Shown here: positions 34,175-57,530 of the stretch, in pieces
Layout of the letters: the number at the start of each line of letters is the position of its first letter
How positions within the stretch are numbered: the stretch's first letter is position 1
From: Candidatus Thorarchaeota archaeon
GTDB lineage: Archaea > Asgardarchaeota > Thorarchaeia > Thorarchaeales > Thorarchaeaceae
Assembly (NCBI GenBank): GCA_003345595.1
Contig: PRDI01000064.1
Location: 1 to 57,530 of the forward strand
Direction of reading: 5' to 3'
DNA: 57,530 nucleotides
Translations under genes and position numbers: made by a program
The notes under the pieces: generated by a model
Told to the model about the DNA's origin: nothing
The model's input: only the letters and a program-made list of their open reading frames with translations
The model's database searches: none

Positions 34175-36937
34175 CTAGTAGTCCATTGAGAGATCGAACT
34201 TGAACCTACCCGGTGAATGTGGAATATCGATCACGGTCCAAACGATATTTCCGTCCGTGTCATACTGAACCTTGCTGCCATCGATGGTTAGCCTCAGTCT
34301 TTCTGTTCGCCAACGTCTAGGCACCAGAATCCGAAGGCGAATGCTGTCTGGAGAATGAATCGCATAGGAACCCCTGATCCTGGAGTCACCAACGGCGTAC
34401 TCGAAGACCGGTGTTCGGACCTCGAATGCTGCAAAAGGAAGACCTGCAGGGAATGAGATCCCCTCAATGTCTGGCTCGACCATCATCTTGAGGAGTGCCA
34501 GCAGGTAAGTCGCATGGAGATTAAGGTTCATAACGGGGAAATCTGTGGTCGGGGTTGCGAAGTTGTAGTAGGTTTCTCCGGGTCGCTTGGAGTATGAGGC
34601 GTTGAATGCATCAGGCCCGCTCCATATTCCAGGCCACAGGTTGGGGTAAGCTTGTGAGTGGTGCTGCATTGAGTTCTTGACCAGCGACTGCCAAGCGAAC
34701 TCCCGTGAGTACATGCTGCAACCCCAAGCCAGCAAAGCACTCATGGCTGGCCATGTGCCTCCATTGACGTCGCACCCTCTCTCAAGATAACCTGCAAGAG
34801 TTCTGTAAGGGGGGTAGACAAGAAACTGACCCCAGGCCGAGGTTTCGTCGAGTCTGCGAGAAACGGTGTGAATCACGCGCTTTGCCTGTTCTTCAGACAA
34901 CACTCCAGAAATCAGAAACCAAGTCAGTGGCTCCAGAAAGATGCTCTTGTTTCCAATTGGCAAACCTGTGCCATCCCAGCCACGGTAGAACCAGTAACCG
35001 TTCCACGAATCAAGACAGGCTCCTTTCAGACTCTCACATGTTGCAGTCAGTCGCTGGGCTCGTCCCCTCTCGCCCCGCTTAGTGAGAAGCGAAGCGATTC
35101 TGGGCAGGATGTAGAGAGCAAATGCAGAGTTGAACATCGACTCCCCTTCACCGAGAAACCTGCGCCTATTCCTAACCATCGTTGAGATCCCGTCGTTCCA
35201 GTCGCCGTCGCCGGCTCGCAGAAGGCCATGCTCTCCCAGTCCGACTCGGTCCAGCAGGTAATCAAGGGCAAGAAGTATCCGCACATAAACAGACGATTCC
35301 AGTCCGGCTGACCTAGGATAGAATGGGATCCGTTTCTCTAGGAAATCGAAGTCGCGCGTCGCAAAGACATACTCTGAAAGCCCCCAGAGAAGAAAGAGGT
35401 ACAGGTCAGATGGCCTACTGTGAACAAGGGCGCCCCCCAGCATACCGTACCCCTGGGTCATGTACGCCAGCTTTCCATCAGACGTCATCATCCGCATGAC
35501 ATACTCGAGCGTCTCTCGTGCAAGGTCAGGAGCTGTGTATGTTGCAGCGATCGAGAAGAGAACCATGTCACGCGGGGCTCCCTGCAGTCCCTGCAAGTAG
35601 TAGTAAGCACCACCTTGCGGCAGGAAATGGTTCTGGAAGTACTCATCGTAGAGGGCCGAGCTTCTGAGATAGTAGGAGTGCCATTTGGTTTCCCTACTAG
35701 TCCAGTCGTAGCTAGCGTCAGCGACCTTCATGTCTACGAGGTCTTCCTTCCATGCAGTGACGCAGTCGGACAAGAGTGGAAACTGGAGTGAAGACTCGCG
35801 AATAGGCGAGAGATTATGACGATACCTCTTCACAATGTCAGAAACCGCTTCCTCGGACGCATACCCAAACAGAAAGGACTGCCTGCTCGACTCTCCGGGT
35901 TTTAGAGAAGTCTTCAGGGAAAGACTCAGGCAGGGCTGGTCTCGACGAGTGAGAGGCCGTGAGAGGGTATCATCACAATGAGTATGGTGGAGTTCAGCCA
36001 GTAGCGATTTGACCGAGGTCTGTGGTCGCACCGACGGATCACTCAGGCAACTCAGAAAGAGTGACTCTGGATAGAAGTTCGCAGAAGCTGGATTGCCGCG
36101 TGCGGGCCGCGCTCCGACATACACTGGCTTGAGCAGGACTGTGCCTTCATCCAGCGTGTACCTTGTCTGGAATGCGAATCTTGACGAATGCGAGTCTCTG
36201 ACTTGTTCAGGAGCAAAACCGATGAGATATTGTGCAGTCTTCAAAACATTGCCCATGACATTGAGCATGCGGCTTGGGCCAAACAATACTCGTTTTCGAT
36301 CAGAATAGATGAGAGAGCCAATAATGCTGCGTAGGTTTACGCCCCAATAGTCTCGGAGGATGAACTCCTTGAGAGAATCGGAGTTGTTTACTATTGCTAG
36401 TTCGGACAGGACCACGGCATCGTCCGAACGCGGTGCAAAGATCACATGATCGAGAATCAAACCATTCTTATTGGTGACCTTTCGGAAGTAGCCAGTGCCA
36501 AAGACGCGGCGCATTCCTGTAGCGTGTTTCTGGGTCGAGTACAGATCACTCCAGGAACTCAGTCCATTGCCAGCGCACTGAATGATTACGATCCCACCAA
36601 ACCCGAAGGGCCTCTTGGTGTCCCTCTTCACTAGCCACTGAGGGCCGCGAGAACCCTCCATGACCTCGACCGTACCATCATTATGTGCCAGAATGTTGAG
36701 GCGATCATTGCCCAGCTGGTGCCAATGGTCCCGTGACGAACCATAGGTTGTCGTGTAGGCCGCTTTAGGGTCTGATACGTGGTCACATGTGTATTCGTAA
36801 GCAGGAAGACCATACTCGTCTGTGAACCAGTGCCCGAAGTGGCCTCCGTCGGTCATCTTTGCGAAAAATGGCTGTACATTGGAACGTAATGAACCTTGAG
36901 TGAGGTGCATGCCTGTCATGGAACTGACGCTAACCAT
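34175..36937 (-). CDS. Glycoside phosphorylase/hydrolase with an (alpha/alpha)6-barrel, GH94-like (cellobiose/chitobiose-phosphorylase type)
   Basis: At 920 aa, it carries a GDGDWNDG motif resembling the catalytic-acid DWND block of GH94 enzymes and aromatic-rich six-hairpin segments. Family assignment is tentative. Confidence 0.55.
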   Translation of the reverse strand: MVSVSSMTGMHLTQGSLRSNVQPFFAKMTDGGHFGHWFTDEYGLPAYEYTCDHVSDPKAAYTTTYGSSRDHWHQLGNDRLNILAHNDGTVEVMEGSRGPQWLVKRDTKRPFGFGGIVIIQCAGNGLSSWSDLYSTQKHATGMRRVFGTGYFRKVTNKNGLILDHVIFAPRSDDAVVLSELAIVNNSDSLKEFILRDYWGVNLRSIIGSLIYSDRKRVLFGPSRMLNVMGNVLKTAQYLIGFAPEQVRDSHSSRFAFQTRYTLDEGTVLLKPVYVGARPARGNPASANFYPESLFLSCLSDPSVRPQTSVKSLLAELHHTHCDDTLSRPLTRRDQPCLSLSLKTSLKPGESSRQSFLFGYASEEAVSDIVKRYRHNLSPIRESSLQFPLLSDCVTAWKEDLVDMKVADASYDWTSRETKWHSYYLRSSALYDEYFQNHFLPQGGAYYYLQGLQGAPRDMVLFSIAATYTAPDLARETLEYVMRMMTSDGKLAYMTQGYGMLGGALVHSRPSDLYLFLLWGLSEYVFATRDFDFLEKRIPFYPRSAGLESSVYVRILLALDYLLDRVGLGEHGLLRAGDGDWNDGISTMVRNRRRFLGEGESMFNSAFALYILPRIASLLTKRGERGRAQRLTATCESLKGACLDSWNGYWFYRGWDGTGLPIGNKSIFLEPLTWFLISGVLSEEQAKRVIHTVSRRLDETSAWGQFLVYPPYRTLAGYLERGCDVNGGTWPAMSALLAWGCSMYSREFAWQSLVKNSMQHHSQAYPNLWPGIWSGPDAFNASYSKRPGETYYNFATPTTDFPVMNLNLHATYLLALLKMMVEPDIEGISFPAGLPFAAFEVRTPVFEYAVGDSRIRGSYAIHSPDSIRLRILVPRRWRTERLRLTIDGSKVQYDTDGNIVWTVIDIPHSPGRFKFDLSMDY

Positions 36938-36987
36938 CTAGGAATCGCAGTCATAAACGCCAACGAACCCAAAGTGATCACAGGATG

Positions 36988-38451
36988 TCAGTCCTCAATC
37001 TGAGCTAGGGCTTTGGCCAGTTTCTGCTTCTCTTCAATGCCTGCCAAACGATGGATCATGATTCGTTGCGCCTGAGGGGAGCCTGCACCATGCATCGATT
37101 CTGTCAGGTATCCTACTGCGGCTCGTCCTAATGTGAGGTTTTCAATCAACCTGAGCATCTTGATCCGATTCACTGTTTCGACGCCTTCGGCGCCAGCCAA
37201 GTACTTCTCGATTATCGTTCTGGTCTGCGGGTTGTGCAGCTCACGAGCGCTCGGACATGTCACAAACAATCCGCCAGCTATATCCTGAAGCAGGCGCGCT
37301 ATCTCGAATGGAAACCTGGTCACGTTTTGCTTGCAGACATTGGCCAAGAGAATGTCAACAAGGTAGTTACCAGCTGGGGTCTGAGTACCGCAGGCCGAGC
37401 AAGCCATGCCGCAGGCATAGAGAGTTTCGTTGAGATGAGTCATCTCTGTGATCTTGTCTCGAATGTGAGATGCTTGGAGAACGCCATTGTACTGCGCAAT
37501 CGTTGCAGCAGCGCCGATGAGAATGTCGCCAACACCGACTTTGCATCCGCCGTAGCTCTGACGATGGTAGGCGGCAAAAGACTCTACGAGACGGGGAGTG
37601 AAGGTGGTTTCGCCATCCATGAATATCCGTTCGTTGGGTACGAATACATTGTCGTAGACCACCAAGCACTCTTGTCCCCCATAGACTGGGTTCCCGCAGT
37701 CGATGTCTCCTTCTGGGCTCACGTCAAGCCGGCGCTGGTCGGAGGACTGGCGTCCGTAGTAGTACGTGATACCATGAGCGTCTGCCGGAACCGCACAACA
37801 GATAGCGTAGTCATGGTCATCCTCACGCATATTGAGTGTTGGCATTATAAGATGCCCATGAGAGTTGATGGCCCCGGTCTGATGCGCTTTGGCCCCGCGA
37901 ATCACCACACCGTCCTCGCGTCGCTGCACAACATGAACGTAGATGTCCGGGTCCACCTGCTCGGATGGGCGCTTGCTTCGATCTCCCTTAGGGTCAGTCA
38001 TTGCTCCGTCGATTGTCCAGTCCTTTCCCTCTGCAAGCTTGACATACTCGATGAATCGTTCGTGATAGTTGGTACCGTGTTTCTTGTCAATCTCGTGAGT
38101 GGTCAAGAACACCGAATTGAGAGCATCCATACCCACACATCGTTGGAAGCAAGTCCCACACTTCTGGCCAATGAGGCGGAGCATCTTCACCTTGGTCTGC
38201 AGGTCCTCAGTGCTCTGGTGGAGGTGACAGAACCGATTGATTGTGTTCCCTGTCAGGATTGATTTCGCGGTCATCAGGTCGCGATACTGGGGATCGTTGG
38301 CAAGATCATAGGTCAAAGCGACAGAGTTGATCGATGCTTTGATGATGGGGTGGTCTACTGGATTGTCGACTCTCTCCCCGTAAAGAAACACCGTGATAGG
38401 CTTCCTCTTACGAAGACTCTCTCGATAGTCGTTGCCAGTCATCAATGCCAA
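36988..38451 (-). CDS. abfD: 4-hydroxybutyryl-CoA dehydratase / vinylacetyl-CoA isomerase (AbfD family)
   Basis: At 487 aa, it has an HpaB-like fold but with the CGTCFQRC cysteine pair at the AbfD [4Fe-4S] ligand position (Cys99/Cys103 equivalent). A downstream H...CC cluster sits near the second ligand site. Confidence 0.72.
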   Translation of the reverse strand: MALMTGNDYRESLRKRKPITVFLYGERVDNPVDHPIIKASINSVALTYDLANDPQYRDLMTAKSILTGNTINRFCHLHQSTEDLQTKVKMLRLIGQKCGTCFQRCVGMDALNSVFLTTHEIDKKHGTNYHERFIEYVKLAEGKDWTIDGAMTDPKGDRSKRPSEQVDPDIYVHVVQRREDGVVIRGAKAHQTGAINSHGHLIMPTLNMREDDHDYAICCAVPADAHGITYYYGRQSSDQRRLDVSPEGDIDCGNPVYGGQECLVVYDNVFVPNERIFMDGETTFTPRLVESFAAYHRQSYGGCKVGVGDILIGAAATIAQYNGVLQASHIRDKITEMTHLNETLYACGMACSACGTQTPAGNYLVDILLANVCKQNVTRFPFEIARLLQDIAGGLFVTCPSARELHNPQTRTIIEKYLAGAEGVETVNRIKMLRLIENLTLGRAAVGYLTESMHGAGSPQAQRIMIHRLAGIEEKQKLAKALAQIED

Positions 38452-43825: not shown

Positions 43826-44740
43826 GTGCCCCAATTCTGGGGAAAAGAGCGCCGAGGTCGGAGTATGCAGGATCTTGCTGCACTTGCAGTGCTGATGTGG
43901 CAGGTTTCACTTGGAATCTTCCTGTTTGGGCTGTTCTACACTTTCGGCTTGTTCGCACTTGGTCACGTCTTCTCGGTCATTGGAGAGGCTGGAGGAGAAC
44001 ACGAAGTTGACCACGACATAGACCACGACATAGACCATGACATAGACCACGACATAGACCACGACATAGACCACGACATAGACCATGACGTAGACCATGA
44101 CATAGACCATGACGTAGACCATGACGTAGACCATGACGTAGACCACGGTATCGATCACGATGTCGACCATGATGTTAGTCATGATGCGGATTATGGCGTC
44201 GACCAAGATACTGAGACTGACCATGATGTTGGCGTGGAGCACGATGTAGAACATGGGGGCGAGTCAGGTTTCTTCGAAACGTCAGGCGGAGCACCAATGG
44301 GAGTTACGATCGGCACATCGCTCGTCACGTTCGGGTTCTTTGGCGCTGTGCTGTACTATGAGGGGCTTGCTCTGCCGCTTCCGTTGAAGGCCCTGCTACA
44401 CATTTCTACTACCGTGCTCATCGTCTACTCAATTCGGGCACTTCTGTCAAAGGTGCTTGTAGAGTCGGGTTTCATGATTCAGCCTCGTCACATAGTCGGC
44501 CATCAAGTAGAAGCGGTTTCTACAGTCAGAGATGACTTTGGCGAGATACGAGCGGAGACCGAAATGGGCCTCAGGCGTTTTCTGGCCCGGCCGTTTGTGA
44601 AGGGTGGGTTGTTCCAGAAGGGCACTACCCTCTATGTGGTTTCTGCGGACGAGAAATTCGTCTACGTTGATCCTAGAAAGGACGTTGCCCGCTCGCAGCA
44701 GAAGCAGAGTGGTAGAGCCGGACCCGACGAGAAGAAGTAG
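43826..44740 (+). CDS. NfeD-like membrane protein (short NfeD: N-terminal TM helices plus C-terminal OB-fold) carrying an internal (Asp-His-Asp-Ile/Val)n repeat insert of about 80 aa
   Basis: N-terminal hydrophobic helices, then the repeat block, another TM pair, and a C-terminal beta-rich domain (…HIVGHQVEAVSTVRDDFGEIRAETEMGLRRFLARPFVKGGLFQKGTTLYVVSADEKFVYV) typical of the NfeD OB-fold. It lies immediately upstream of an SPFH/flotillin gene, the canonical NfeD-SPFH arrangement. Confidence 0.65.
   Translation: MPQFWGKERRGRSMQDLAALAVLMWQVSLGIFLFGLFYTFGLFALGHVFSVIGEAGGEHEVDHDIDHDIDHDIDHDIDHDIDHDIDHDVDHDIDHDVDHDVDHDVDHGIDHDVDHDVSHDADYGVDQDTETDHDVGVEHDVEHGGESGFFETSGGAPMGVTIGTSLVTFGFFGAVLYYEGLALPLPLKALLHISTTVLIVYSIRALLSKVLVESGFMIQPRHIVGHQVEAVSTVRDDFGEIRAETEMGLRRFLARPFVKGGLFQKGTTLYVVSADEKFVYVDPRKDVARSQQKQSGRAGPDEKK
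44009..44250 (+). repeat. In-frame tandem repeat with unit GACCACGACATA (DHDI). About 13 near-perfect copies are followed by about 7 degenerate copies encoding DHDV/DHGI/SHDA...
   Basis: Directly visible in the sequence at 44009-44250. The period is 12 bp, with synonymous and conservative drift at the distal end. Confidence 0.95.
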
Positions 44741-45150: not shown

Positions 45151-46491
45151 ATGCAAGATGTGTTCAGCTGGATATGGCAGAATCCCGCAGTTTCTATTCC
45201 AATCTTCGGGATTCTGGCTCTTCTTCTACTGTTGCTCTACATCAAGAAGTACGTGCGCATTTACGACCCAAATATCTTCTATGTGCATCTCCGAAAAGGG
45301 AAGGCCAAGAAGCAGGGCGAGGGCGGCATGGTCATCAGAGTGCCGTTCTTCGATAGGATTCTCGCTGTTGACAGGACAGTTCAGCAGCTGAACATCAGTG
45401 CAGAATCAGTGCTCTCCAAAGAGAAGCAGAAAATCAAGCTCAACGCCGTGCTTCAGTGGCAGGCGGAGAACGCTATCGCGACGATAAACAACGTCAAGTG
45501 GAGCGAGATACCGCCAAGACTGACCGCAATCATTGAGTCTGTCATACGAACAGCGTGTGCTCAGCTATCTGTTGAAGAGATACTGATGGAACGCCAGAAG
45601 ATCATTGAGGCAATCAAGAAGGAGCTCATAGACATCGTGAGCGAGTGGGGGCTCAAGGTCGTCACCGTCGAAATTGTAGATGTGACAGTTGTAAATGACT
45701 CGTTCCTGCGCGACATGGCAAAGCCCCGTGAAGCAGAGATGCACCGACTGGCACAGATTGCGCTCATAGATGCTGACCAGTCCACAGGCACTAAGGACAT
45801 TGAAAGGACTCGAGTACTTCGTGAGAAGGAGATTGATCGGGACAAGCTAGTTGGTGTCCAAGAACAGGCACAGATGAGGGCTATCCAGGAGTCAGAGAAG
45901 CAACGTGAACAGAGCGTTCTGGAGATCGAGCTCCAGAAGGAGCTGATGAGGAAACGCTACGAGAAGCAGCAGGCAGAAGTCGAAGCCAGCAAGTCGTTAG
46001 AAGTGGCGAAGCTGCTCGCTGAAGGTGAGCGGGAGCGCAAGGTTAGACAAGAGGTGGAGGTAGATGCACAGCGCATCCTACGGGAGGCTCAGGCTCATGC
46101 TGAGCAGATCACTATGGTCGCAACGGCTGAGGCGGAAAGAACCTTGAAGGTCACTAGCGCTCAAGCGGAAGGTATCAAGAAGACGCTTGCGGCCGCGAGA
46201 GACTACACACCACAGGCCTTCGCAAGGGACTTCCTGCAGATGCTGCCGGAGATCTATGAACACGTCAAGATTGGTGACGTGACTCTGTTTGGAGGCGGCG
46301 GCGGTGCCGCAGGAGATGGCGGCGAGAGTACAGGAAGCGGCGGAGGAGCTTTCGGCGTCTATGGCAACGTCTTGCTGCCAATGATGCTGATGGCTCGGAT
46401 GATGGGCTTCGACTTCAAAGGCCTGATGAAGGGCGCTCTTGGACAGATGGCCACTGTCGAGGATGAGGGGGATAAGTCGAAGAAGGCGTGA
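45151..46491 (+). CDS. Flotillin-like SPFH/band-7 protein
   Basis: N-terminal membrane hairpin, an SPFH core (…MVIRVPFFDRILAVDRTVQQLNISAESVLSKEKQKIKLNAVLQWQ…), a long Glu/Ala/Arg/Lys coiled-coil (flotillin repeat) and a Gly-rich tail. Length is 446 aa. Confidence 0.85.
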   Translation: MQDVFSWIWQNPAVSIPIFGILALLLLLLYIKKYVRIYDPNIFYVHLRKGKAKKQGEGGMVIRVPFFDRILAVDRTVQQLNISAESVLSKEKQKIKLNAVLQWQAENAIATINNVKWSEIPPRLTAIIESVIRTACAQLSVEEILMERQKIIEAIKKELIDIVSEWGLKVVTVEIVDVTVVNDSFLRDMAKPREAEMHRLAQIALIDADQSTGTKDIERTRVLREKEIDRDKLVGVQEQAQMRAIQESEKQREQSVLEIELQKELMRKRYEKQQAEVEASKSLEVAKLLAEGERERKVRQEVEVDAQRILREAQAHAEQITMVATAEAERTLKVTSAQAEGIKKTLAAARDYTPQAFARDFLQMLPEIYEHVKIGDVTLFGGGGGAAGDGGESTGSGGGAFGVYGNVLLPMMLMARMMGFDFKGLMKGALGQMATVEDEGDKSKKA

Positions 46492-46586: not shown

Positions 46587-48107
46587 ATGGCAACCGTTTC
46601 AATAGCTGCTCTAAGACTTATATGGCTCTCCAGTAAACTGCATGAAGGCGTTCCTGTGACCATGAAGCTAAAGGAGGTTTCAAGGGTGCAGCTCCTGTCG
46701 GAGGCTTACAGTCTTTATGTGAGACAACGGCCTCAGGGGAGTGCCCAAGTCTTCTCCTTGGACTATGCTGACAAGCTCAAAATCTACGATACATCAGGTT
46801 CCGTCAAGTCCTCCACCAATTGGAGTAGTAAGGTCCGCTGCATTGCTGTCGGTGATGTTGAGGGTGAGGGGGACGACGCTCTGGTTGGAGGCATAGCGAA
46901 CAGGGTGGTTGTTGTAGATCGTGTGGGAAAGCCAATATGGAAGATTGAACTCGAAAGTGATGTTGTCGGCTGCGATGCGCGCGATGTCGACGGGGACGAT
47001 GCCGCCGAGATTGCTGTTGCCCTGGAGAACAAACGGATCATTCTTTGGAACGATGACAAGACAGCCCTCTTTAGCCGCGTCATGGATAATCCAGTTGCAG
47101 ACATTTGGCTTGAGGAAATGACAGGAAGCCCAGAACTGGAAGTGGTGGTAGCAGATCGCAAGGGTAACCTCGTTATCCTGACCGCGGCCGGGTACGAAAT
47201 AAGGCGTATGAAGCTCGGAAACGATCTGAGAGTCTTTGCTGTCTTATCCTTTGGCAGCAGGAAGCTTTTCGTGACTGGAGAGAACTCAAATGCACTGAAG
47301 GTGTGGGATATCGACGGGTCTGAGACAGGGTCAATCGAACTCTCCGGGAAACCTAGAGCCCTTGCCACTGGGTCACTTGGTGGCATTTCAGACATGGCTT
47401 ACCTTGTCGTGAGCACAGATGACAAGAAGCTCAGCTTCTGGCAAATCCAAGACACAGACAAGCCGAGTAGACAGGAAAAAGTGACACTCCAGCAAATGGA
47501 GTCAACGAGAACTACAATCTACAAACGTGCCATCAAGTGTGGCAATTGCGGTGCACCCGCCTTGCCTGAAGCCAAGAGATGCGGATCGTGTGGGGCCATC
47601 TTGGAGATCTCGGCAGAGTACAAGATTGAGGAGTTTGTGAAAGAATGCATCGACTCCGTCATGTCTAGACATGAGAGAATCAAACTGAAAGACCTGGATC
47701 GCATCCTGAGAAGGACACTGCCCAAGCCAGTGCCTTACAACTTGCGGATGAATCTTCAGACAATGATTGAAACGGGTGACATTGATGGCTACATCGAAGG
47801 CAACACGTTCGTCCGCGCCCAAGAGACCGAACTGCGGAAGGAGGATCTTCCGACCACGGAGGCCGTCGAAAACATACCCGACGTGCTTATGTCTCTCCTT
47901 AAGGGGGAGCAGAGATTCGAGATTGACGTTCTTGAGAGTAGGACAGGCGTTCCCAGGAAAGTCTTGAGGCATACCTTGATGATACTTCTCGGGGAAGGGC
48001 TTGTTGAGGGCTACTTTTCAGGTGATGAATTCGTGCTTAATCAAAAACAGGACGCGCAGGAGTTCGTTAGAAGGCTGGAGAGTGAGCTGACGGAGCTGAG
48101 TAGTTGA
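46587..48107 (+). CDS. Beta-propeller (FG-GAP/PQQ-like repeats), C4 zinc-ribbon, tandem winged-helix protein
   Basis: About 300 aa of repeated hydrophobic-strand/Asp-Gly-Asp blades (IAVGDVEGEGDDALVGG..., DVDGDDAAEIAV..., VVVADRKGNLVIL...). Then CGNCGAPALPEAKRCGSCGAIL. Two C-terminal about 70-aa wH-like units follow. Confidence 0.55.
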   Translation: MATVSIAALRLIWLSSKLHEGVPVTMKLKEVSRVQLLSEAYSLYVRQRPQGSAQVFSLDYADKLKIYDTSGSVKSSTNWSSKVRCIAVGDVEGEGDDALVGGIANRVVVVDRVGKPIWKIELESDVVGCDARDVDGDDAAEIAVALENKRIILWNDDKTALFSRVMDNPVADIWLEEMTGSPELEVVVADRKGNLVILTAAGYEIRRMKLGNDLRVFAVLSFGSRKLFVTGENSNALKVWDIDGSETGSIELSGKPRALATGSLGGISDMAYLVVSTDDKKLSFWQIQDTDKPSRQEKVTLQQMESTRTTIYKRAIKCGNCGAPALPEAKRCGSCGAILEISAEYKIEEFVKECIDSVMSRHERIKLKDLDRILRRTLPKPVPYNLRMNLQTMIETGDIDGYIEGNTFVRAQETELRKEDLPTTEAVENIPDVLMSLLKGEQRFEIDVLESRTGVPRKVLRHTLMILLGEGLVEGYFSGDEFVLNQKQDAQEFVRRLESELTELSS

Positions 48108-48168: not shown

Positions 48169-51060
48169 ATGGACATCAGTAAGAGAATCGTTATCACGTT
48201 CGTGACAGTCGCGTTGATTCCAATTCTGGTCATGTCTGGGCTCGCAGCATACACCATATACAACGTATCGAGCGAGAACGCCAGTGATGCTGGTGACGCT
48301 CTGGAAGCCGAAGAGAAGGCCAACCTGGAAAGACTGGCCAATGACACAGCACTGTTCATAGAGGAGAGTATGCAGAGCTATATTGACGGCGTCTACATTA
48401 TGGAGAAATACTGCGAGGACCTCTTTAATGGACGCATCAACGCCAGTCCACAGGAGTCCTACTACTGGGATTATCTGCTTGAACTGTCGGTCAATGGCCG
48501 TAACATACCGGGTAGGCACTATGATCCGGCATACGAGTATGTGCTGGACAATGGCACAATAATGAGTCCGGGTTATGTTTCGTTTGACGTCAGCTGCTAC
48601 TACATGCCACGTCCGTTTTTCCCAAATCCGGCTGACCCATTTGACCTTGATCCGGTGACAGAGTACTATCTCAACGTGTCGAGCAACATGGACAACATTT
48701 TCAGGGCACTCCATCAAATGAATGGTGACTACATCTGGTTGTACATTGGGATCGACCCTGGCGTGTGCGGTGCCCATCTCTTCAAGAACTATCCTCATGA
48801 CACGTTGCAGTACTTCATGCTTGATGAAGCAGGCAATCCTATCCCTCCTGAACAGGACTATGACCCACCTGAGGAAGAGTGGTACGATAACGCTGCGGCT
48901 GTTAGCATTGCTAATTCGAGCATGGCATTCACTGGTCCCTACGGCGATCCATCGACGGGTCTGGTGATATCCATGGGAAGGCCAGTGTACTACGACAATG
49001 GCACTCTCATAGGTGTCGTTTCTGCTGACGTCACGTTGGACACCGTCTTGGCAAGTGTTCTAGACATCCGGGTGCTAGAGAGTGGTTACGCATATCTACT
49101 CCGGTCTGATGGTGGCGTCATTGCGCACCCCGATTTCGCCCTTGAGGGACAGACCATATACGATCTTGAGTTTGCAGCGGATTCCCTTTCTGAGAAGGAA
49201 GCGTTCGCCATTATCCTTGATACCGTTCTTGACACTGGTTATGGTCAGAACACATTTACGAAGAATGCAACGCAATGGCTGGTGACTTTCAAGCAGGTGC
49301 CGAATTCTGGCTTCCTTTTGGCTGTGGTCGTTCCCAAGTCCGAGGTGATTGCCCCGGCACAAGACGTTCTGTCACTGGTCCTGACTCAGACAACCTACCT
49401 GACACTAGTGCTTGGCGGCGTGCTGGCTGTTGTTGCCGTCATGGTCGGTGTTGTATCATACAAGCGAGGACGCTCAGTGACAGAGCCCATCAAGGAGATG
49501 ACGCGCCTCGTCGAGAAGATGGCGAAGCAGGACTTCACGAGAAGCATCACTACCACAGGCTCAATGTACGAAGAGATTGGCACAACGGTAGATGCGCTCC
49601 TCAGCTTTCAGGAGGCGTGTAGATTCGGTAATCAAGCTTTCATTAGAGGTGACTTGAGCCGCGCGCTTGCGAACTATCAGAACCTTCTCGAAATCAGCAA
49701 ACGGCTTCATATCGAAGTCGGCGAACAGACCATGTATCTGAACATAGGCAACGTCTTCCGACAACGAGCTGACATCAACAGTGCCCAGGAGTACTATGAC
49801 AGAGCGCTCTCAATTGCCAATACACTGCTTGAGAGGGCAAAGGCAGATGGGACAGATGAAGCGGATGCCATGGATAGGATTGCCTCTGTTTATCACAACA
49901 TGGCCCTGCTGGAAACGGACCGCGGAGAGTACGACAAAGCGATGTCTAGACTCGAGGACGCAGAGGCTGTCGATAAGACCCTTGATAACAAGCGCGGCTT
50001 GGCAAGGCGTTATGATGCAATGGGCCTAGTGATGATGAAGCAAGGACGCTACAGCCAGGCGAGATCACGTTTCGACGATGCAAGGAAGCTCGCTTCAGCC
50101 GAAGGATATGACAGAGCTTTGGCTTACATCGGTTTTCACATGGGCGAATTTCATGTGAGTCAATCCGACCTGAACAAGGCGAAGGCTTCATTCCTGCAGG
50201 CAATCGAACTGGCAGAAAGGACGGAGGAGTTCTGGCTACAGGTGTATTCCATGCAACAACTGGCAGACGTGTATGACCAGCTGGATGAACCCAGTCACGA
50301 CATCCGGAGGAATGCTGAGAAGCTCAGAAGATCCATCCAGTTCAAGAAGAGTGTAGTCTTCGTCATCGACTACTCTGGCAGCATGCGCACCCAAGACAGG
50401 ATAAAGGCGGCAGTAGAAGGAGCAAGGGCGATATTCGAGAGTCAGATCAATCCACAGGACGAGGTAAGCATTATCACATTCAACATAGCCCTCCAACAGG
50501 TACTTCCCCTGACCAAGAAAGGAGAATACCGAGATCTGAAAGAAAGCCCAGTCCATCGTGCTCTCGATTCAATCAGATACCCCAACTACTCGACGGCATT
50601 CTACGACGCACTCGGAAAAGCTCTTGAGGATCTCAATAAGATTGAATCGAGCGAACATAGGTGGATTATTGCCCTGAGCGATGGGCAGGATAATAGCTCC
50701 AAGACATATTCTCTGGACGCTCTGAAGGGCATAGTCACAGAGAAGGACAGACAAAGCAAGAAGAGGCCTCTTACCATCGAAGGTTTCATACGAGACAATC
50801 ACCTTGATGTGAATCTCATTATCATCGGGGTAGGAGAGGAGCTGAAGAAGGAGATTGACAAGGACGTTCGTTCTCGTGTGTCTGGCAAACGAATGGACTT
50901 CGAAGAACTGCTAAGGTCTGTCTGCGAGTCGATTCCTCAGGGACAATACCTCTCCGTAGTCGACAGCCATGACGTTCAGCTGGACATTGAGAAGGCATTC
51001 AAGCAGATCGGGGTCCTGATGGCCCAACTAGAAGTGGGAGGAGCAACTGATGATTACTAG
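48169..51060 (+). CDS. Membrane sensor: TM, extracellular dCache-like domain, TM, short HAMP-like linker, TPR repeats, C-terminal vWA domain
   Basis: TM1 (IVITFVTVALIPILVMSGLAAYTIY). An about 370-aa extracytoplasmic region with Cache hallmarks (YIWLYIG, GYAYLLRSDGGVIAHPDF) follows. TM2 (LVLGGVLAVVAVMVGVV), then TPR-like helical pairs (AL..Y...L.I), then a vWA domain with MIDAS DYSGSM plus SDGQDNSS. Confidence 0.72.
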   Translation: MDISKRIVITFVTVALIPILVMSGLAAYTIYNVSSENASDAGDALEAEEKANLERLANDTALFIEESMQSYIDGVYIMEKYCEDLFNGRINASPQESYYWDYLLELSVNGRNIPGRHYDPAYEYVLDNGTIMSPGYVSFDVSCYYMPRPFFPNPADPFDLDPVTEYYLNVSSNMDNIFRALHQMNGDYIWLYIGIDPGVCGAHLFKNYPHDTLQYFMLDEAGNPIPPEQDYDPPEEEWYDNAAAVSIANSSMAFTGPYGDPSTGLVISMGRPVYYDNGTLIGVVSADVTLDTVLASVLDIRVLESGYAYLLRSDGGVIAHPDFALEGQTIYDLEFAADSLSEKEAFAIILDTVLDTGYGQNTFTKNATQWLVTFKQVPNSGFLLAVVVPKSEVIAPAQDVLSLVLTQTTYLTLVLGGVLAVVAVMVGVVSYKRGRSVTEPIKEMTRLVEKMAKQDFTRSITTTGSMYEEIGTTVDALLSFQEACRFGNQAFIRGDLSRALANYQNLLEISKRLHIEVGEQTMYLNIGNVFRQRADINSAQEYYDRALSIANTLLERAKADGTDEADAMDRIASVYHNMALLETDRGEYDKAMSRLEDAEAVDKTLDNKRGLARRYDAMGLVMMKQGRYSQARSRFDDARKLASAEGYDRALAYIGFHMGEFHVSQSDLNKAKASFLQAIELAERTEEFWLQVYSMQQLADVYDQLDEPSHDIRRNAEKLRRSIQFKKSVVFVIDYSGSMRTQDRIKAAVEGARAIFESQINPQDEVSIITFNIALQQVLPLTKKGEYRDLKESPVHRALDSIRYPNYSTAFYDALGKALEDLNKIESSEHRWIIALSDGQDNSSKTYSLDALKGIVTEKDRQSKKRPLTIEGFIRDNHLDVNLIIIGVGEELKKEIDKDVRSRVSGKRMDFEELLRSVCESIPQGQYLSVVDSHDVQLDIEKAFKQIGVLMAQLEVGGATDDY

Positions 51061-51074
51061 GAGGCGGGAGTGAA

Positions 51075-52538
51075 ATGTCGATCACACGCAAGAAAGGCAG
51101 TTTCCGAAGAAACGTAATTGTGACTTTCATGTTGATCTCAGTCCTCTCTCTGGCGGCCACAGGCGCAGTCGCGCTGACCTTCATGAATCTTATTGGTGGG
51201 TTGACCACCGACGAGAGCTCCCAGGCGCTTGAAACCCAGATTGAAACAAACATCGAGCTGACTGCTGAGAACAATGCTCAGGTCATCAGACAGAAGCTTT
51301 CCAACGCAGAGGCAATGGTCAGTGCCATGGCTGAGGAGTGTGAAGCCCTGTTCAAAGATACGTCAACATACCAGCCAAGAAATGTGTACTATGACTACTT
51401 CTATGAGTATCCCTCGCCCGGCCTCTATCCATCGGACACACACTTCGAGGCAGGATATGGCATCAATGTGTCCTGGAACTATAGCAGCTGGTACATCCCC
51501 GGTTCCTACTCTGGCAACTATGAAACATACAAGACAGCGAATGCTGAGAGGCTTGGCAGAGCATCGAATCTTGACATCATTTTCAAGGGCGTTCACGATA
51601 GGGCCTCTGAGTTCAGGTGGTTGTATTTGGCGTTTGAAGACGACCTCTTCATCAACTACCCCGGTAGCATTGTGGGCGGAACGGATACGGAGAGGAACAA
51701 TCCACTAACACAGTGGCATTGCAGTGAAGATGACTGGTATCAGACCCTCCGGGCAGGCAACGGAAACATGTTGTTCGTTGAACCGTACTACGACCCCATC
51801 GAGGGAGTTCTTCTGATATCGATGGGTAGAGCAGTCTATGACGGGGACGGGTTCTTGATGGGCGTGATAGCTGGCGACATCACTGTGGAAGACATCAGGA
51901 CAAAGATACTGGACGTACAGGTCCTCGAAACCGGTTATGCAGCTCTCTTAACCGCTGGTGGCGACATCGTGGCACATCCCGAAGTCGAAGATGAGGATTA
52001 CGCATTGTATGGTGGAAACCTGCCTCCGTTGACAGATTTCGAAGTGAACATCCCCGGCAACACTCCTGCTTTGACGACTGCACAGATGGCACAAATCACG
52101 TCAGGGACAACAGGTACAACGGAATACCGGCGGAGCGGGATTGATCTTCTTTTGGCCTACACCCCAGTCGGCGTGGGAGGATACATCTGCATCATAGTAG
52201 TGCCCATTGAAGAGGCCAAAGCCGCAATCCCGGTGCTCGAAAGCAGGATTCAGACCGCAAACATCCAAGCGATTCTATTCATGGGGACGATTACGGTCGT
52301 GGGGATTGTTGTTGCAGGTTTTGTTGCAGGCGGCATATCAAGTCAGGTCACGAAGCCCCTACAGTACCTGATGGGTCTCGCTACGAAGAATGTCACAGCG
52401 ATGATAAAGCAAGAACGACTCGACACGCAGGATCTACAGGTCGACAGACAGTTCATAGCGAAGGATGACGAGATCGGCGAACTGGCCAGAGCCTTTCAAG
52501 GTATGCTTGACACGATGCGAGAAGACGAGAAGCAGTAG
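51075..52538 (+). CDS. Membrane sensor paralogue: TM, dCache-like domain, TM, HAMP, with no recognisable output domain
   Basis: Same Cache hallmarks as the upstream gene (FRWLYLAF, GYAALLTAGGDIVAHPEV). TM2 is followed by a HAMP-like amphipathic segment ending EIGELARAFQGMLDTMRE. It starts 15 nt after the upstream gene. Confidence 0.72.
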   Translation: MSITRKKGSFRRNVIVTFMLISVLSLAATGAVALTFMNLIGGLTTDESSQALETQIETNIELTAENNAQVIRQKLSNAEAMVSAMAEECEALFKDTSTYQPRNVYYDYFYEYPSPGLYPSDTHFEAGYGINVSWNYSSWYIPGSYSGNYETYKTANAERLGRASNLDIIFKGVHDRASEFRWLYLAFEDDLFINYPGSIVGGTDTERNNPLTQWHCSEDDWYQTLRAGNGNMLFVEPYYDPIEGVLLISMGRAVYDGDGFLMGVIAGDITVEDIRTKILDVQVLETGYAALLTAGGDIVAHPEVEDEDYALYGGNLPPLTDFEVNIPGNTPALTTAQMAQITSGTTGTTEYRRSGIDLLLAYTPVGVGGYICIIVVPIEEAKAAIPVLESRIQTANIQAILFMGTITVVGIVVAGFVAGGISSQVTKPLQYLMGLATKNVTAMIKQERLDTQDLQVDRQFIAKDDEIGELARAFQGMLDTMREDEKQ

Positions 52539-52615: not shown

Positions 52616-54409
52616 GTGGCTAGAAACGACCTGCACTTTCTGGACATAGCCAACAATGGAGACCTCGTACTACGGCTAAGAGGCCAGACCATTACATTCG
52701 ACGAGATTACGAAGAGGGTCAAGGTCGAATATAGCAAAAGAGAGGACTACACATCATCATTTACTCTCCGCATCCCGCAGCTGATTCAGCATCAGGTACT
52801 GAAGCTGAGAGCCGCGTTTGCCAATGCGATGCGAAATCTGGACTACCAAGGAGCCTTCAGGGGCGTCTATCCTGTGAAGGTCAACCAACGAGCCGATAGC
52901 ATAGTCCCTATCCTGGACGTGGATTCAGAATATGGACTCGAAGTCGGGACCAAAGCAGAGCTGCTTCTTGTGAAAAAACTGACGGCCAATCAGAAGCATA
53001 GACTGATCATATGTAACGGTGCGAAGGACCCTGAGTATCTGGACATGATAAGTCGATATTCTGAGGAGGGATACGATCTTCACACCTCGGTAGAGTCCAG
53101 CCATGAGGCCAGACTGATAACCGGTTTGTTCGAACCAGAAAGGACGAACCTGATTCTTCGATTGAAACCCTACGTGACAGCTCGTGGTCGGTGGTCACAT
53201 TCAGCGGGCAGGGAATCGAAGTTCGGCTTGAGCATTCATGACCTATTCGATGTCATTGAGCTGCTCAAGGAACAGGGCTTCCGGGACACCGTAAGAACAG
53301 TGCTTGGACACATAGGGTCACAGGTGGCAGCTATTGAGGACTTCCGTCCGTTCGCTGCTTACCTAGCTCATGCGTTTTGTGAAATCAGACGTGTTGGCCT
53401 TAGGAATCTGAAGACCATCGACTTTGGTGGGGGGCTGCCGACTGACTACACAAGTTCGTATCCCTCAGATCTTATGGATCAGTATGCGTCCATGATCATC
53501 CAGGGTGTCAAGGATGAGATCGGCGTCCACTCTCGAGGCGGGGTCACACCAGACATCATGGTAGAATCGGGACGGAGTCTTACGGCACCTGGGTCGTTGA
53601 TTGTTGTTAAGGCAACAGAGGTCCGTTCGCTCTTTCCAACAGATGTGGAACTTGCGGAAGAGGATGTCCGCGAGAGAAACACATGGAGCGTTCGGATCAG
53701 GAACTCAACATCGGTCACAGAGCTTGTAGAAATCTGGAATGAATTCTTGGCATCAAAAGCGGCACTACCGAAACTCTTGGACGAGCTTCGTGCACGGGAG
53801 AGGCTAATAGGTGACCTGAGGTCCGAACTCCGTCAGCAGCTCGCACGCCTTGTCGCGAGGACGATGAGGGCAGATAGCTTTTTGGAGACCATCTGGAGTC
53901 CGGACTATATCGTGATCGGGAATTTCAGTGTGTTCAACTGCGCTGCCGACCACGTCCTTGCGAACCAGTACTTTCCCGTTTTGCCAATAAGGGACTTGCA
54001 TGTCAGGCCTGAAACCACAGTTCGATTGGTTGACATCACGTGTGACTCTGATGGAGAGATATCTGAGTTCCAGAGAAAGGGCGTCGATGAGATGTGGTTG
54101 ACCAGAGACTACAGGCCCGTTGCTATGCCTACGCAAGAGATTGGGATAGGCATACCTGTCGGATACATCAAGAACGTGGAGGAATCGTACTTCGTCATAG
54201 CCCTGACGGGGGCCTATCAAGACGTCATTGAGATGGATCACAATCTGCTTGGCGATTTGCCAGACGTCATCATTCATCTGACAGATGATGACAAGTGGTG
54301 CATTACTTGGGCCACGGGGGCTGAGTCAATGGCGAAGATACTGGAGCGCATAGGGTACAGCGAAATGGGCGACCGTAAGGACCCATACATGTCAGACCGG
54401 AAGCAGTAG
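52616..54409 (+). CDS. speA: Biosynthetic arginine decarboxylase (SpeA; PLP-dependent fold-III decarboxylase)
   Basis: N-terminal block IPQLIQHQVLKLRAAF...GVYPVKVNQ matches the SpeA FPQILQHRLR...YPIKVNQ region. Glycine-rich DFGGGLP also present. Length is 597 aa. Confidence 0.82.
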   Translation: MARNDLHFLDIANNGDLVLRLRGQTITFDEITKRVKVEYSKREDYTSSFTLRIPQLIQHQVLKLRAAFANAMRNLDYQGAFRGVYPVKVNQRADSIVPILDVDSEYGLEVGTKAELLLVKKLTANQKHRLIICNGAKDPEYLDMISRYSEEGYDLHTSVESSHEARLITGLFEPERTNLILRLKPYVTARGRWSHSAGRESKFGLSIHDLFDVIELLKEQGFRDTVRTVLGHIGSQVAAIEDFRPFAAYLAHAFCEIRRVGLRNLKTIDFGGGLPTDYTSSYPSDLMDQYASMIIQGVKDEIGVHSRGGVTPDIMVESGRSLTAPGSLIVVKATEVRSLFPTDVELAEEDVRERNTWSVRIRNSTSVTELVEIWNEFLASKAALPKLLDELRARERLIGDLRSELRQQLARLVARTMRADSFLETIWSPDYIVIGNFSVFNCAADHVLANQYFPVLPIRDLHVRPETTVRLVDITCDSDGEISEFQRKGVDEMWLTRDYRPVAMPTQEIGIGIPVGYIKNVEESYFVIALTGAYQDVIEMDHNLLGDLPDVIIHLTDDDKWCITWATGAESMAKILERIGYSEMGDRKDPYMSDRKQ

Positions 54410-55790: not shown

Positions 55791-57530
55791 TCAGCGATTG
55801 TAGGGATAGCATGGCTTCACCATTAACCCCATGAGGGCTGTCCTCAGCTGGTCATCAGACACGAATCCTGAAACCTGGTGATCCCCACAGAGCCTGATTA
55901 AAGGGACGACTGGTACATCATTCTCAGAAACACTAACAGAGGGGTCATCTACGTTGACAACCTCTACGCTCCGAGACGGAAGGCCAAACTCTTGGACCAG
56001 CCCCATCAGTATCTCAAAGGCTGGTTCACAAAAGAGGCAGTGATTGGACTTGTAGAACGTTATGCAAGAGTTCTTGCCGCAGGGCAGGTCCAAGGGTTCT
56101 CTCCAAGACGGGACTACCACAACGAACCGAGCCCCCTCCGAAGCCCTGCCTTTAACACGGTCTTCAACCCAGACTTTCCCACCTAGCTGTTTCGTAATGG
56201 CGTCAGCGACCGTGAGACCCAGCCCTCGACCTACTATCTGAATGGTAGGACTCCCGGTGCGCTTGAAGATGAATTCCTTTAGAGAGTCAGGGATCCCCGG
56301 GCCTTTGTCCAAGAACTCGAATCTTACGCTATCACCATGGTCGCTTTCTTCACATTGTACTTCGACCTCTATGTCATCCCTCTCATCATGCATTGCGGAA
56401 TTGTGGACGATGTTGAAGAAGACAAGGTCGAAGTACGTATGTGCCGCGACGTAGAACTCACCCGGCTTCAGGTCACTTCGAAGAGTAATCTGTTTCCATG
56501 GGAAGTCCTGTCGAACCGAGCTGATTGCTCTCTGCAATGAACCAAAGGGATCAGTTTTCTCCTTTATGGGGGGGTTCTCATGCACTGCCATCAGCAATCG
56601 AAGGTTAGCTACCATCCTGGCAGCGCGTTTCACATTCCATGTACTCTGTGTTACGAGAGGCCTGAGGTCACCGGGAAAGTCTGGCGACGCTTCGATGAGC
56701 CCCAGAGTGAAGAGAAGGGTCTGGTTGCAGTTGTTCAGATCGTGGGTCATGACCTCAAGATAGAGATTCGCGCGTTCCCTCTCGATGCTTTCTTGCTCCT
56801 CTGCTTCCTTCCTGTGAGTAATATCGATGACCATGAGAGCAATAGTGGTGGACTTGTCATCCTCAGGCAGTACACTGGAACTGATGCTTACCCATACGCT
56901 CTCCCCGTCTGCGTTTCGCAGCCTCATTTCCCTGTCCTTAATACTGTGACCTTCCAGCACCTCTGATATGAGCTGCCTTGCGGTGTCTGTGTCGGTTGGG
57001 TCACTCGGCAGAAACGAAGTGATGCCTCGACGTAGCAGCTCATTCTCAGGGTAGCCTAGGAGTCTCTCAGCGGCGCTGTTTACTCCTTGGATGATGCCAC
57101 GGGGACTCAGAGTGAAATATGCGATAGGTGACGACTCGTACAGCTTCTTGTACCGAATCTCAGACTGCTCCACAGCCGCCTCTAGCTCAAGCTGTTGGTC
57201 AATGTTTCTGGCAACAACAACAATCGCGGGTCTACCATCGAAGATGAAGTCTGCAGTGCTGACCTCGACGTTGAGTGGAGCGTTCTTTCCAGTGAGGAAA
57301 CGGGCTCGAAAGCTTGAACGACTCTGCTCACCGAAGGCGAATCCCTCTTGCTTCTCTTGGAACAGATGTGTCGCGACAGGATCCAGAACGGACTCAAATG
57401 CGGCCCCAACGAGGTCAGACTCGTTATATTCGAGCATCTTTGCTAAGGCAGGATTGATCATTACTATTCTGCTGTCTTGCACTACAACGATCCCGTCGTT
57501 GGCCATGTGAATAATATCGTAGTACCTACT
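55791..57530 (-). CDS. Sensor histidine kinase (PAS, PAS, DHp, HATPase_c) fused to a C-terminal thioredoxin-like CxxC domain. The N-terminus lies outside the window.
   Basis: Two PAS cores (DGIVVVQDSRIVMINPALAKMLEY, SPIAYFTLSPRGIIQGVNSAAERLLGY). A phospho-acceptor His in VMTHDLNN, G1/G2 boxes (DKGPGI, GRGLGLTVAD), and a tail with a CLFC redox motif. The frame stays open to the window end. Confidence 0.8.
   Translation of the reverse strand, partial: SRYYDIIHMANDGIVVVQDSRIVMINPALAKMLEYNESDLVGAAFESVLDPVATHLFQEKQEGFAFGEQSRSSFRARFLTGKNAPLNVEVSTADFIFDGRPAIVVVARNIDQQLELEAAVEQSEIRYKKLYESSPIAYFTLSPRGIIQGVNSAAERLLGYPENELLRRGITSFLPSDPTDTDTARQLISEVLEGHSIKDREMRLRNADGESVWVSISSSVLPEDDKSTTIALMVIDITHRKEAEEQESIERERANLYLEVMTHDLNNCNQTLLFTLGLIEASPDFPGDLRPLVTQSTWNVKRAARMVANLRLLMAVHENPPIKEKTDPFGSLQRAISSVRQDFPWKQITLRSDLKPGEFYVAAHTYFDLVFFNIVHNSAMHDERDDIEVEVQCEESDHGDSVRFEFLDKGPGIPDSLKEFIFKRTGSPTIQIVGRGLGLTVADAITKQLGGKVWVEDRVKGRASEGARFVVVVPSWREPLDLPCGKNSCITFYKSNHCLFCEPAFEILMGLVQEFGLPSRSVEVVNVDDPSVSVSENDVPVVPLIRLCGDHQVSGFVSDDQLRTALMGLMVKPCYPYNR

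Follow-up and report, generated by a model that had tools for sequence, protein, structure and literature searches.

How does a membrane sensor signal when it carries none of the usual transmitters? Transmembrane receptors built from Cache and HAMP domains are the commonest extracellular sensors of prokaryotes and are classed by a small set of enzymatic or chemotaxis outputs. The question is raised by two adjacent genes, here called A and B, on a contig of a Candidatus Thorarchaeota archaeon (GenBank assembly GCA_003345595.1, contig PRDI01000064.1), of which we analysed positions 1 to 57,530 of the forward strand (57,530 nucleotides, hereafter the window). Gene A joins a double-Cache sensor to tetratricopeptide repeats (TPR) and a von Willebrand A (vWA) domain with a complete metal ion-dependent adhesion site (MIDAS), and its paralogue B ends just after HAMP. 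We propose that A and B are two subunits of a non-enzymatic transmembrane receptor that signals by regulated protein docking, with a probability of about one half; the specific ligand and the specific client that we put forward are much less certain than this overall model. What would be new here is a Cache/HAMP receptor with a non-enzymatic output and an obligate paralogous partner.

Two paralogous sensors, one with a TPR-vWA output

The features of the two genes are as follows (TM, transmembrane segment).

48169-51060, + strand: gene A, putative output-carrying receptor subunit, 963 aa, TM-dCache_1-TM-HAMP-TPR-vWA
48187-48258, + strand: A, TM1 (residues ~7-30), hydrophobic segment
48271-49335, + strand: A, extracytoplasmic double-Cache sensor (residues 35-389), dCache_1 63.4 bits
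49375-49461, + strand: A, TM2 (residues ~403-431), hydrophobic segment
49465-49614, + strand: A, HAMP-like helix-connector-helix (residues 433-482), Pfam HAMP 15.4 bits, cut-off 25
49615-50283, + strand: A, cytoplasmic TPR superhelix of ~six repeats (residues 483-705), TPR_12 66.8 bits
50344-51036, + strand: A, cytoplasmic vWA domain with complete MIDAS (residues 726-956), VWA_2 45.2 and VWA 37.0 bits
50368-50382, + strand: A, DxSxS of the MIDAS, with T809 and D838
51075-52538, + strand: gene B, putative partner subunit, 487 aa, TM-dCache_1-TM-HAMP, ending ~5 residues past HAMP
51207-52238, + strand: B, dCache_1 60.0 bits, cut-off 45
52260-52352, + strand: B, TM2 (residues ~396-426), hydrophobic segment
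52356-52520, + strand: B, HAMP, 20.6 bits, cut-off 25

A first, preliminary description of this DNA had recognised paired, co-directional paralogues with a TM-Cache-TM sensor, the first of which continues into TPR and a MIDAS-intact vWA domain. Both points were confirmed: the open reading frames (ORFs) lie where it placed them, dCache_1 exceeds its Pfam cut-off of 45 in both proteins, TPR_12, VWA_2 and VWA each exceed theirs in A, and the strings DYSGSM and SDGQD are both found in A. TM1 of B spans residues ~15-41. A and B align at 27% identity over 464 aa (E = 8e-44), across the whole sensor part, and are thus paralogues; the 14 nt between them contain GGAGG, a ribosome-binding site. The ~50-residue helix-connector-helix that follows TM2 in A scores under the Pfam HAMP cut-off. 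An AS1 proline and an AS2 motif of the 'DEIGxLxxAF' type are seen in the A and B sequences, the homologous position of the Hodarchaeota A protein reaches 25.2 bits (cut-off 25), and the A and B proteins of loci L077 and L078 have strong precomputed HAMP matches.

Two transmembrane segments, clusters of Lys/Arg before TM1 and after TM2 in A and B, and the enrichment of N-glycosylation sequons in the Cache part (21.9 versus 3.8 per 1000 residues in A; 11.0 versus 5.1 as the orthologue average) place the Cache domains outside the cell and HAMP, TPR and vWA inside. Pfam and NCBIfam searches of both proteins at E ≤ 0.1 found no domain of a kinase, methyl-accepting chemotaxis protein (MCP), cyclase, phosphodiesterase or phosphatase, and Pfam detected nothing in B besides dCache_1 and HAMP. 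Matches of A and B to kinase and MCP equivalogs were confined to Cache, HAMP or TPR and lay far under the cut-offs. One A orthologue is labelled 'Methyl-accepting chemotaxis protein McpC' at NCBI; we rejected A as a chemoreceptor or histidine kinase, since it has no MCPsignal or kinase domain. That B stops after HAMP, as the preliminary description had it, is true of the window protein and not of all its relatives: in the B protein of locus L062 (4784-6781, +) HAMP is followed by a Zn ribbon and HEAT_PBS repeats, and those of L077 (9817-11580, +) and L078 (9388-11214, +) end in a CxxC...CxxC Zn ribbon.

An AlphaFold2 monomer model of A, built on an alignment of 38 orthologues (pLDDT, the predicted local distance difference test, 76.5), showed a double-Cache ectodomain, a TM2 that extends as a long helix and an alpha/beta vWA fold. 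The TPR part was modelled at pLDDT 85-94 with ~six repeats, and HAMP appeared as a helix-loop-helix at low confidence with a poorly modelled connector. In this low-confidence region, residues 465-493 form one unbroken helix that comprises the second HAMP helix (AS2) and the first TPR helix. Foldseek against the Protein Data Bank (PDB) matched the Cache part to Mlp24, Mlp37 and PscC and the TPR part to the TPR domains of LGN/Pins and kinesin light chain; PDB matches of the A sensor include Mlp24, PctA and PctC. A family vWA profile matched the solved vWA domains of ITIH4, Sulfolobus vWA2 (5a8j), the anthrax toxin receptor and BatB. Pfam profiles, Foldseek and this family profile thereby bear out the Cache and vWA folds, which had at first been read from the sequence alone.

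The MIDAS residues D734-x-S736-x-S738, T809 and D838 are unchanged in the 38 Thorarchaeia orthologues (57-86% identity), in which the cytoplasmic module is better conserved than the sensor. From archaea to eukaryotes the site is near-invariant, with DxSGSM and LTDGxDN retained, so that the intact MIDAS of the preliminary description proves to be a family trait. Two further signatures run through the family. The first is a motif at the HAMP/TPR junction, 'LRFGNxxYYxGD', of which 'RFGNxxxxxGD' is nearly invariant from archaea to eukaryotes. The second is an acidic/aromatic C-terminal tail, conserved after the last vWA helix of A (51010-51057, residues ~948-963), which reads '...LEVGGxTxDY' in Thorarchaeia, '...VEGFxPE[EDY]' in other archaea and '...GQxxxE[DES][YF]' in eukaryotes. 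This tail could be an intramolecular ligand of the MIDAS or of the TPR, and thus autoinhibitory. The vWA domain of A also holds an insertion, EIDKDVRSRVSGKRMDFEE (50848-50904, residues ~894-912), confined to Thorarchaeia and missing in the other archaeal and in the eukaryotic members.

A and B are inherited as a pair

B orthologues of equal length follow A in all Thorarchaeia loci. Wherever the contig reaches, ~60 Thorarchaeia species show the same order of four genes: a beta-propeller protein (Prop), A, B and an arginine decarboxylase. In five further divergent archaeal lineages, one of them Hodarchaeota, a B-type Cache-HAMP gene lies directly after A (5/5), with a start/stop overlap or a gap of <20 nt. 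A scan of metagenomes turned up 69 loci that carry an A-type ORF; 12 of them were uninformative owing to short flanks, and B was adjacent or fused in 54 of the 57 informative loci. Adjacent B-type ORFs occurred at 50 of the 69 (36 in the order A>B, 12 B>A and 2 divergent) and fused long proteins at four, and three loci had no B although at least 1.5 kb flanked A on both sides. Conservation of the pair in related genomes, on which the preliminary description had made its proposal depend, is therefore found in ~60 Thorarchaeia genomes, in the five divergent lineages and in nearly all informative metagenome loci.

Among the sensors of Thorarchaeia, L064/L065, L079, L080 and Hodarchaeota, best matches run from A to A and from B to B, which points to an old duplication whose two lineages were co-inherited. 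The eukaryote-type proteins of the family (1,400-2,100 aa) align with a B-type ORF in their N-terminal half and with an A-type ORF in their C-terminal half, and these B-A fusions carry four TM segments. Near-universal adjacency and fusion together argue that A and B make up one receptor, presumably a heterodimer.

Alternatively, A could be a self-sufficient homodimer and B a separate sensor acting by itself, or else a decoy or competitor, which would titrate away the ligand or poison dimers of A. Sensor and HAMP are indeed both complete in B, the pockets of A and B are unlike inside some pairs (YRWYYDD versus YDWYYDD; L092, L096, L121), and the three long-flank loci without a B gene also fit separate roles. 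Yet adjacency is near-universal and tight, the two lineages are separate and co-inherited, and the fusions put both modules into one polypeptide at 1:1 stoichiometry, with which a freely titrating competitor is hard to reconcile. We regard independent action of the two proteins as unlikely. As to whether B is a co-receptor or a competitor, both of which had been suggested, the tight spacing or overlap, the co-inherited lineages and the B-A fusions favour the co-receptor and disfavour the competitor.

The family spans Asgard archaea and protists

Full-length A orthologues (941-965 aa, 57-86% identity) form at least 120 clusters, almost all labelled Thorarchaeota, and a scan of one genome per species found gene A in ~65 genomes of Thorarchaeia or 'Promethearchaeota'. 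When the vWA domain of A only (residues 715-963) was searched exhaustively against 1.84 billion cluster representatives, 723 matches at E ≤ 0.001 were returned, and the best 149 were classed by architecture and scored with Thorarchaeial sub-profiles. The full TM-Cache-TM-HAMP-TPR-vWA architecture was present in 62 of these best 149; 20 were (HAMP-)TPR-vWA proteins, mostly truncated at the N-terminus, 54 were short fragments and only 12 were other long vWA proteins. The same full architecture occurs in many other archaeal lineages, including Hodarchaeota; the archaeal relatives are mostly metagenome sequences without taxonomy. In one metagenome protein, P0264 (806 aa), a region of ~five TM segments replaces the Cache domain at the N-terminus and HAMP-TPR-vWA is kept, which supports TPR-vWA as a modular output.

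Eukaryotic members were found in the jakobids Stygiella incarcerata and Andalucia godoyi (ANDGO_00932), in Trimastix marina (Preaxostyla) and in the stramenopiles Platysulcus tardus and Mallomonas annulata, and further members are EukProt entries. Pfam recognises dCache_1, HAMP, TPR and a C-terminal VWA in the eukaryotic proteins. In a neighbour-joining distance tree of the cytoplasmic module (42 sequences), eukaryote-labelled and eukaryote-type sequences formed one clan in 50/50 bootstraps, nearest to the archaeal L079 group; the tree is unrooted and thinly sampled and so gives no direction of descent or transfer. A giant-virus metagenome-assembled genome (MAG) contig, GVMAG-M-3300023179-27 (L084 = L093), carries a B-type gene (3826-5373) followed by an A-type gene (5527-8229), and this B>A pair belongs to the eukaryote-type clade. 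Locus L081, the source of P0326, is likewise an AT-rich contig with few introns, and Bro-N and PARP genes are found on it.

Gumerov et al. reported a vWA domain inserted in the Cache domain of all eukaryotic dCache_1 proteins and attributed eukaryotic Cache to transfer from Bacteria (PMC8915833); the protist proteins of the A/B family do not fit this description. It is possible, though we hold it doubtful, that A/B represents, in Thorarchaeia, an ancient receptor system specific to Asgard archaea and eukaryotes (jakobids, a metamonad and stramenopiles, whose clade shows B->A pairs or B-A fusions), shared through descent from the Asgard ancestor of eukaryotes or through one exchange, perhaps giant-viral. 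On this tentative reading, the pair would work together with a BBS2-like beta-propeller, and the joining of Cache and vWA in the calcium-channel alpha2delta subunit might even derive from it. If true, the family would count as a new signature receptor of eukaryotes, with HAMP-TPR-vWA as its docking output, and the published view of eukaryotic dCache_1, vWA-in-Cache and bacterial in origin, would be contradicted. That the pair sits in a four-gene cluster and that the family reaches eukaryotes both go beyond the preliminary description. A family held at ~60% identity over an Asgard class and present in Hodarchaeota and a protist clade bears on the signalling machinery of the archaeal ancestor of eukaryotes, and also on the origin of eukaryotic Cache-vWA proteins.

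Known receptors and vWA proteins share parts of the architecture

The input half of A and B is that of the dCache_1-HAMP receptors, such as PctA, Mlp24, Mlp37 and kinases like mmHK1S-Z2, which share the order TM-double-Cache-TM-HAMP and give the best sequence and fold matches for residues ~35-400 of A. Unlike those receptors, A and B have no MCP, kinase, cyclase or phosphatase domain; A has a TPR-vWA output, and it is paired with a paralogue. A precedent for B is the Cache_heme-HAMP (CHH) receptor, which is output-less and binds an operon-encoded Ser/Thr kinase via HAMP (bioRxiv 10.64898/2026.05.25.727664). CHH thus resembles B as an output-less Cache-TM-HAMP protein that signals by binding the product of a neighbouring gene. 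It differs in being bacterial, with a haem-Cache and a soluble kinase as partner, whereas A and B come without a kinase and the partner of B would be a paralogous TPR-vWA receptor.

The only well-known combination of dCache_1 with a MIDAS vWA is that of alpha2delta and CACHD1 (PMC4822843, PMC8915833). Their matches to A are weak and local (a fold match to 8x90_B and weak profile matches). In alpha2delta and CACHD1 the vWA domain lies inside the Cache domain, both are extracellular, and HAMP and TPR are missing; in A, the Cache domain is uninterrupted and the vWA domain is cytoplasmic and C-terminal, after TM2, HAMP and TPR. We rejected A as an alpha2delta-like protein on this topology and domain order.

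ArnB, from the ArnA-ArnB module that represses motility in Sulfolobus acidocaldarius, is a cytoplasmic archaeal vWA protein that takes part in signalling via protein-protein interaction (PMC6509490). Among solved structures, its paralogue vWA2 (5a8j) ranks with the best matches to the family vWA profile. ArnB itself is soluble, combines a beta-sandwich with a C-terminal helical bundle that carries phosphosites, works with an FHA partner under the control of phosphorylation and an FHA domain, and has neither a membrane sensor nor TPR. Its partner ArnA bears a Zn ribbon. A is membrane-bound, with vWA as its last domain, the A/B cluster has no FHA protein, and the likeness to ArnB is limited to the vWA domain.

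BatA and BatB are membrane-anchored vWA proteins like A, and BatB (3ibs, 4jdu) matches the family vWA profile. BatB-type proteins combine vWA with TPR; Bat proteins are encoded in MoxR/DUF58 operons, place vWA before TPR and have no Cache or HAMP domain. Many prokaryotic vWA proteins, BatA/BatB and other pairs among them, partner with MoxR ATPases. The vWA domain of A could accordingly be the adaptor of a MoxR-type AAA+ ATPase, in which case the output would be ATP-driven remodelling and not simple docking. Such a role would suit the BatB (3ibs) match and the presence in the window of a MoxR-like AAA+ ATPase gene (AAA_5/AAA_3; 22649-23572, - strand). We hold it highly improbable, as that gene, the only MoxR-like one in the window, is 25 kb from A and B and no AAA+ gene occurs in the conserved neighbourhoods examined.

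LGN/Pins and kinesin light chain give the best fold matches of the TPR part of A, a homology at domain level only. Together with the integrin I-domain and Rea1/midasin they are soluble or adhesion proteins of eukaryotes, in which gating by a Cache/HAMP ligand sensor is not known. In the integrin I-domain and in Rea1/midasin, the coordination of the MIDAS metal is completed by an acidic residue that the bound partner contributes. This mode of docking is the one that we propose for A. A TPR-vWA output has no counterpart among the receptor classes of a census of Cache domains (PMC4822843) or of one of archaeal signal transduction (PMC5847659), and the literature searched for Cache, HAMP, vWA, TPR and Asgard in combination held no description of the A/B family, in agreement with the initial impression that the system was undescribed. 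Public labels of A orthologues are 'tetratricopeptide repeat protein', 'cache domain-containing protein' and 'VWA domain-containing protein'. The family would add a TPR solenoid plus MIDAS vWA as a non-enzymatic, docking-based class of output.

A propeller protein and an arginine decarboxylase flank the pair

Two further genes of the window belong to the conserved cluster.

46587-48107, + strand: Prop, cytosolic beta-propeller/Zn-ribbon/winged-helix protein, directly upstream of A
52616-54409, + strand: SpeA-like, pyridoxal phosphate-dependent arginine decarboxylase, Orn_Arg_deC_N 84.6 bits

Prop consists of a seven-bladed FG-GAP/BBS2-like propeller (residues 27-288) with repeats of the 'DVDGDD' type, a helix, a CxxC...CxxC Zn ribbon (residues 316-340) whose four Cys are invariant in orthologues, and two winged-helix-like modules (residues 347-484). 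Pfam gives Beta-prop_WDR19_1st at 29.1 bits and Zn_Ribbon_1. The AlphaFold2 model has a pLDDT of 83 with residues 1-23 disordered, and as the orthologues measure ~480 aa, the true start is probably Met26, at 46662. Prop lies directly 5' of A in all Thorarchaeia loci that extend that far. Homologues flank A/B in L064, L075 (Hodarchaeota) and L080; the order in the Hodarchaeota MAG is A, B, then propeller plus Zn ribbon. In Thorarchaeia, Hodarchaeota, L064 and L080 it is Prop that bears a Zn ribbon; in L062, L077 and L078 such a ribbon is found at the C-terminus of B. The presence of the ribbon on Prop where B is short is a weak hint, of the kind drawn from gene fusions, that Prop acts at the receptor.

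Foldseek matched Prop to propellers of the BBSome, KICSTOR and IFT-A and to WD40 propellers, all of them generic, and we make no claim that it is a specific BBSome or intraflagellar transport (IFT) homologue, because generic WD40 propellers score equally. These matches bear on a different view of the locus, in which A and B do not signal and serve as a membrane anchor or scaffold: TPR, vWA and propeller would assemble a coat-like or BBSome-like structural or trafficking complex, with the Cache domains as an element of extracellular attachment or gating. The TPR part does resemble the scaffolds LGN/Pins and kinesin light chain, Prop is like BBS2, BBS1, BBS9 and IFT-A (its Hodarchaeota homologue matches BBS2_Mid at 32.5 bits, cut-off 27), and the family is common to archaea and eukaryotes. 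The input, however, is a typical ligand-binding dCache plus HAMP, a combination familiar from receptors that signal across membranes, each clade keeps its pocket residues, and the likeness of the propeller is shared by many WD40 proteins. A purely structural role therefore seems to us rather improbable. The literature searched offered no usable account of Thorarchaeota beta-propeller/solenoid or coat-like proteins.

The SpeA-like protein scores 321 bits against the NCBIfam profile for biosynthetic arginine decarboxylase, under the cut-off of 369. Its gene lies downstream of B in the Thorarchaeia loci that extend that far. In a divergent Asgard clade (L062, L064, L065, L066), whose A proteins are 33-36% identical, the order A then B is kept and SpeA (in L064 and L065) still adjoins the pair, on its upstream side and in the reverse orientation; the propeller gene of L064 is downstream of the pair and convergent. 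This placement of SpeA on the other side and strand shows that the linkage outlived a rearrangement. No SpeA gene was found beside the Hodarchaeota pair or the other archaeal pairs inspected.

The ligand pocket argues against a free amino acid

In the dCache_1AA amino-acid sensors, Y121, R126 and W128 (PctA numbering) contact the ligand's carboxyl group and Y144 and D173 its amino group; the R126A exchange lowers the affinity of PctA 61-fold (PMC8915833). The equivalents in A are Y231, E236, W238, Y258 and D287, and Y129 is kept. Over seven pocket positions (231, 236, 238, 239, 258, 260 and 287 in A numbering) B reads W/D/W/Y/Y/D/D, with Asp at the R126 position. Neither protein thus carries the amino-acid-sensor motif, R126 being replaced, and among the 38 A orthologues the position is Glu in 34 and Gln in 4. 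The Hodarchaeota A and B proteins and many eukaryote-type A proteins keep YDPRxRxWY. In four pairs of the eukaryote-type clade (L092, L096, L121, L122) A has YRWYYDD and B has YDWYYDD, and such differing pockets in one pair suggest that the two subunits may sense different ligands.

With the carboxylate-clamping Arg replaced by Glu in A and Asp in B, the ligand is probably not a free alpha-amino acid. Cerna-Vargas et al. 2023 (PMC10104139) report that the R126 position is likewise not conserved in amine-binding dCache domains, that the AM_motif of the dCache_1AM amine sensors includes a small pocket insertion and specific aromatics, and that dCache_1AM occurs in a single archaeal phylum, Halobacteriota. 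What bears on an amine sensor in A and B is that the clamping Arg is lost and the residues for the amino group are kept. At the SpeA-linked metagenome loci with an aligned sensor, the R126-equivalent is Glu, Asp or Gln and never Arg. It is plausible that the SpeA-linked clade senses an amine, for example agmatine or a polyamine, and the suggestion is weak because the acidic residue also occurs where SpeA is missing. A strict correlation of acidic R126-equivalents with SpeA was dropped, as it is true one way only.

The decarboxylase gene may also be an incidental neighbour, with ligands unrelated to arginine or polyamine metabolism. SpeA is not beside the Hodarchaeota or other archaeal pairs, acidic R126-equivalents occur without it, and Thorarchaeia loci are broadly syntenic past this cluster. 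On the other hand, SpeA of the divergent clade is still adjacent after it switched sides and strands, and none of the SpeA-linked sensors retains the carboxylate-clamping Arg. We consider an incidental association quite possible.

A proposed model for signalling by docking

How A and B might work as one receptor can be sketched from these observations. The double-Cache modules of both proteins would bind small molecules outside the cell. A cationic compound or a decarboxylated one, such as agmatine or a polyamine, is the likelier ligand and would agree with the arginine decarboxylase gene next to the pair. Binding would be passed on through TM2 and a HAMP bundle built jointly by A and B. Because the second HAMP helix of A runs into the first TPR helix, a rearrangement of HAMP would then shift both the TPR superhelix and the vWA domain at the C-terminus. 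As output, a cytoplasmic protein would be docked or released via the TPR groove and the MIDAS metal, without catalysis. We infer both this MIDAS-dependent docking and the direction of its regulation. The likeliest client would be Prop, encoded just upstream, which could in turn affect targets further downstream; its winged-helix modules might give it an influence on gene expression.

Several observations weigh against the docking model. HAMP, through which the signal would pass, is sub-threshold in both window proteins (15.4 bits in A, 20.6 in B), and its region in A was modelled at a pLDDT of 24-43. Prop occurs at 24 of the 69 metagenome loci and was not detected beside A/B in L065, L077 and L079. 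The linkage of SpeA is limited to one clade and could be inherited synteny that survived a single inversion, and some lineages with no SpeA gene beside the pair have acidic R126-equivalents too. In L077 and L078, A is most closely related to B and B to A; these pairs may have arisen independently or been homogenised. Lastly, we infer the heterodimer, the client and the ligand alike.

Other genes of the window

Two ORFs of 920 and 487 aa at 34175-38451 had the look of a second A/B-like pair and were rejected as such; they encode a GH94-like protein and HpaB. The 847-aa ORF that follows the MoxR-like gene (20106-22649, - strand) has no Pfam match at E ≤ 0.001 and could be a MoxR partner protein of unknown type. 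Two genes unlinked to A/B encode a 509-aa leucine-rich-repeat (LRR_8) protein (32557-34086, - strand) and a PAS-HATPase_c sensor kinase with a Cys-rich C-terminal extension (55791-57506, - strand). Upstream of Prop lie the genes of a membrane protein without a Pfam match (43826-44740, + strand), in which an Asp-His repeat (DHDIDHDV...) covers residues ~60-140, and, directly downstream of it, of an SPFH/Band_7 flotillin-like protein (45151-46491, + strand). These two were rejected as parts of the A/B system, since they are not conserved neighbours of A/B; they may form an NfeD/SPFH-like pair with a metal-binding repeat.

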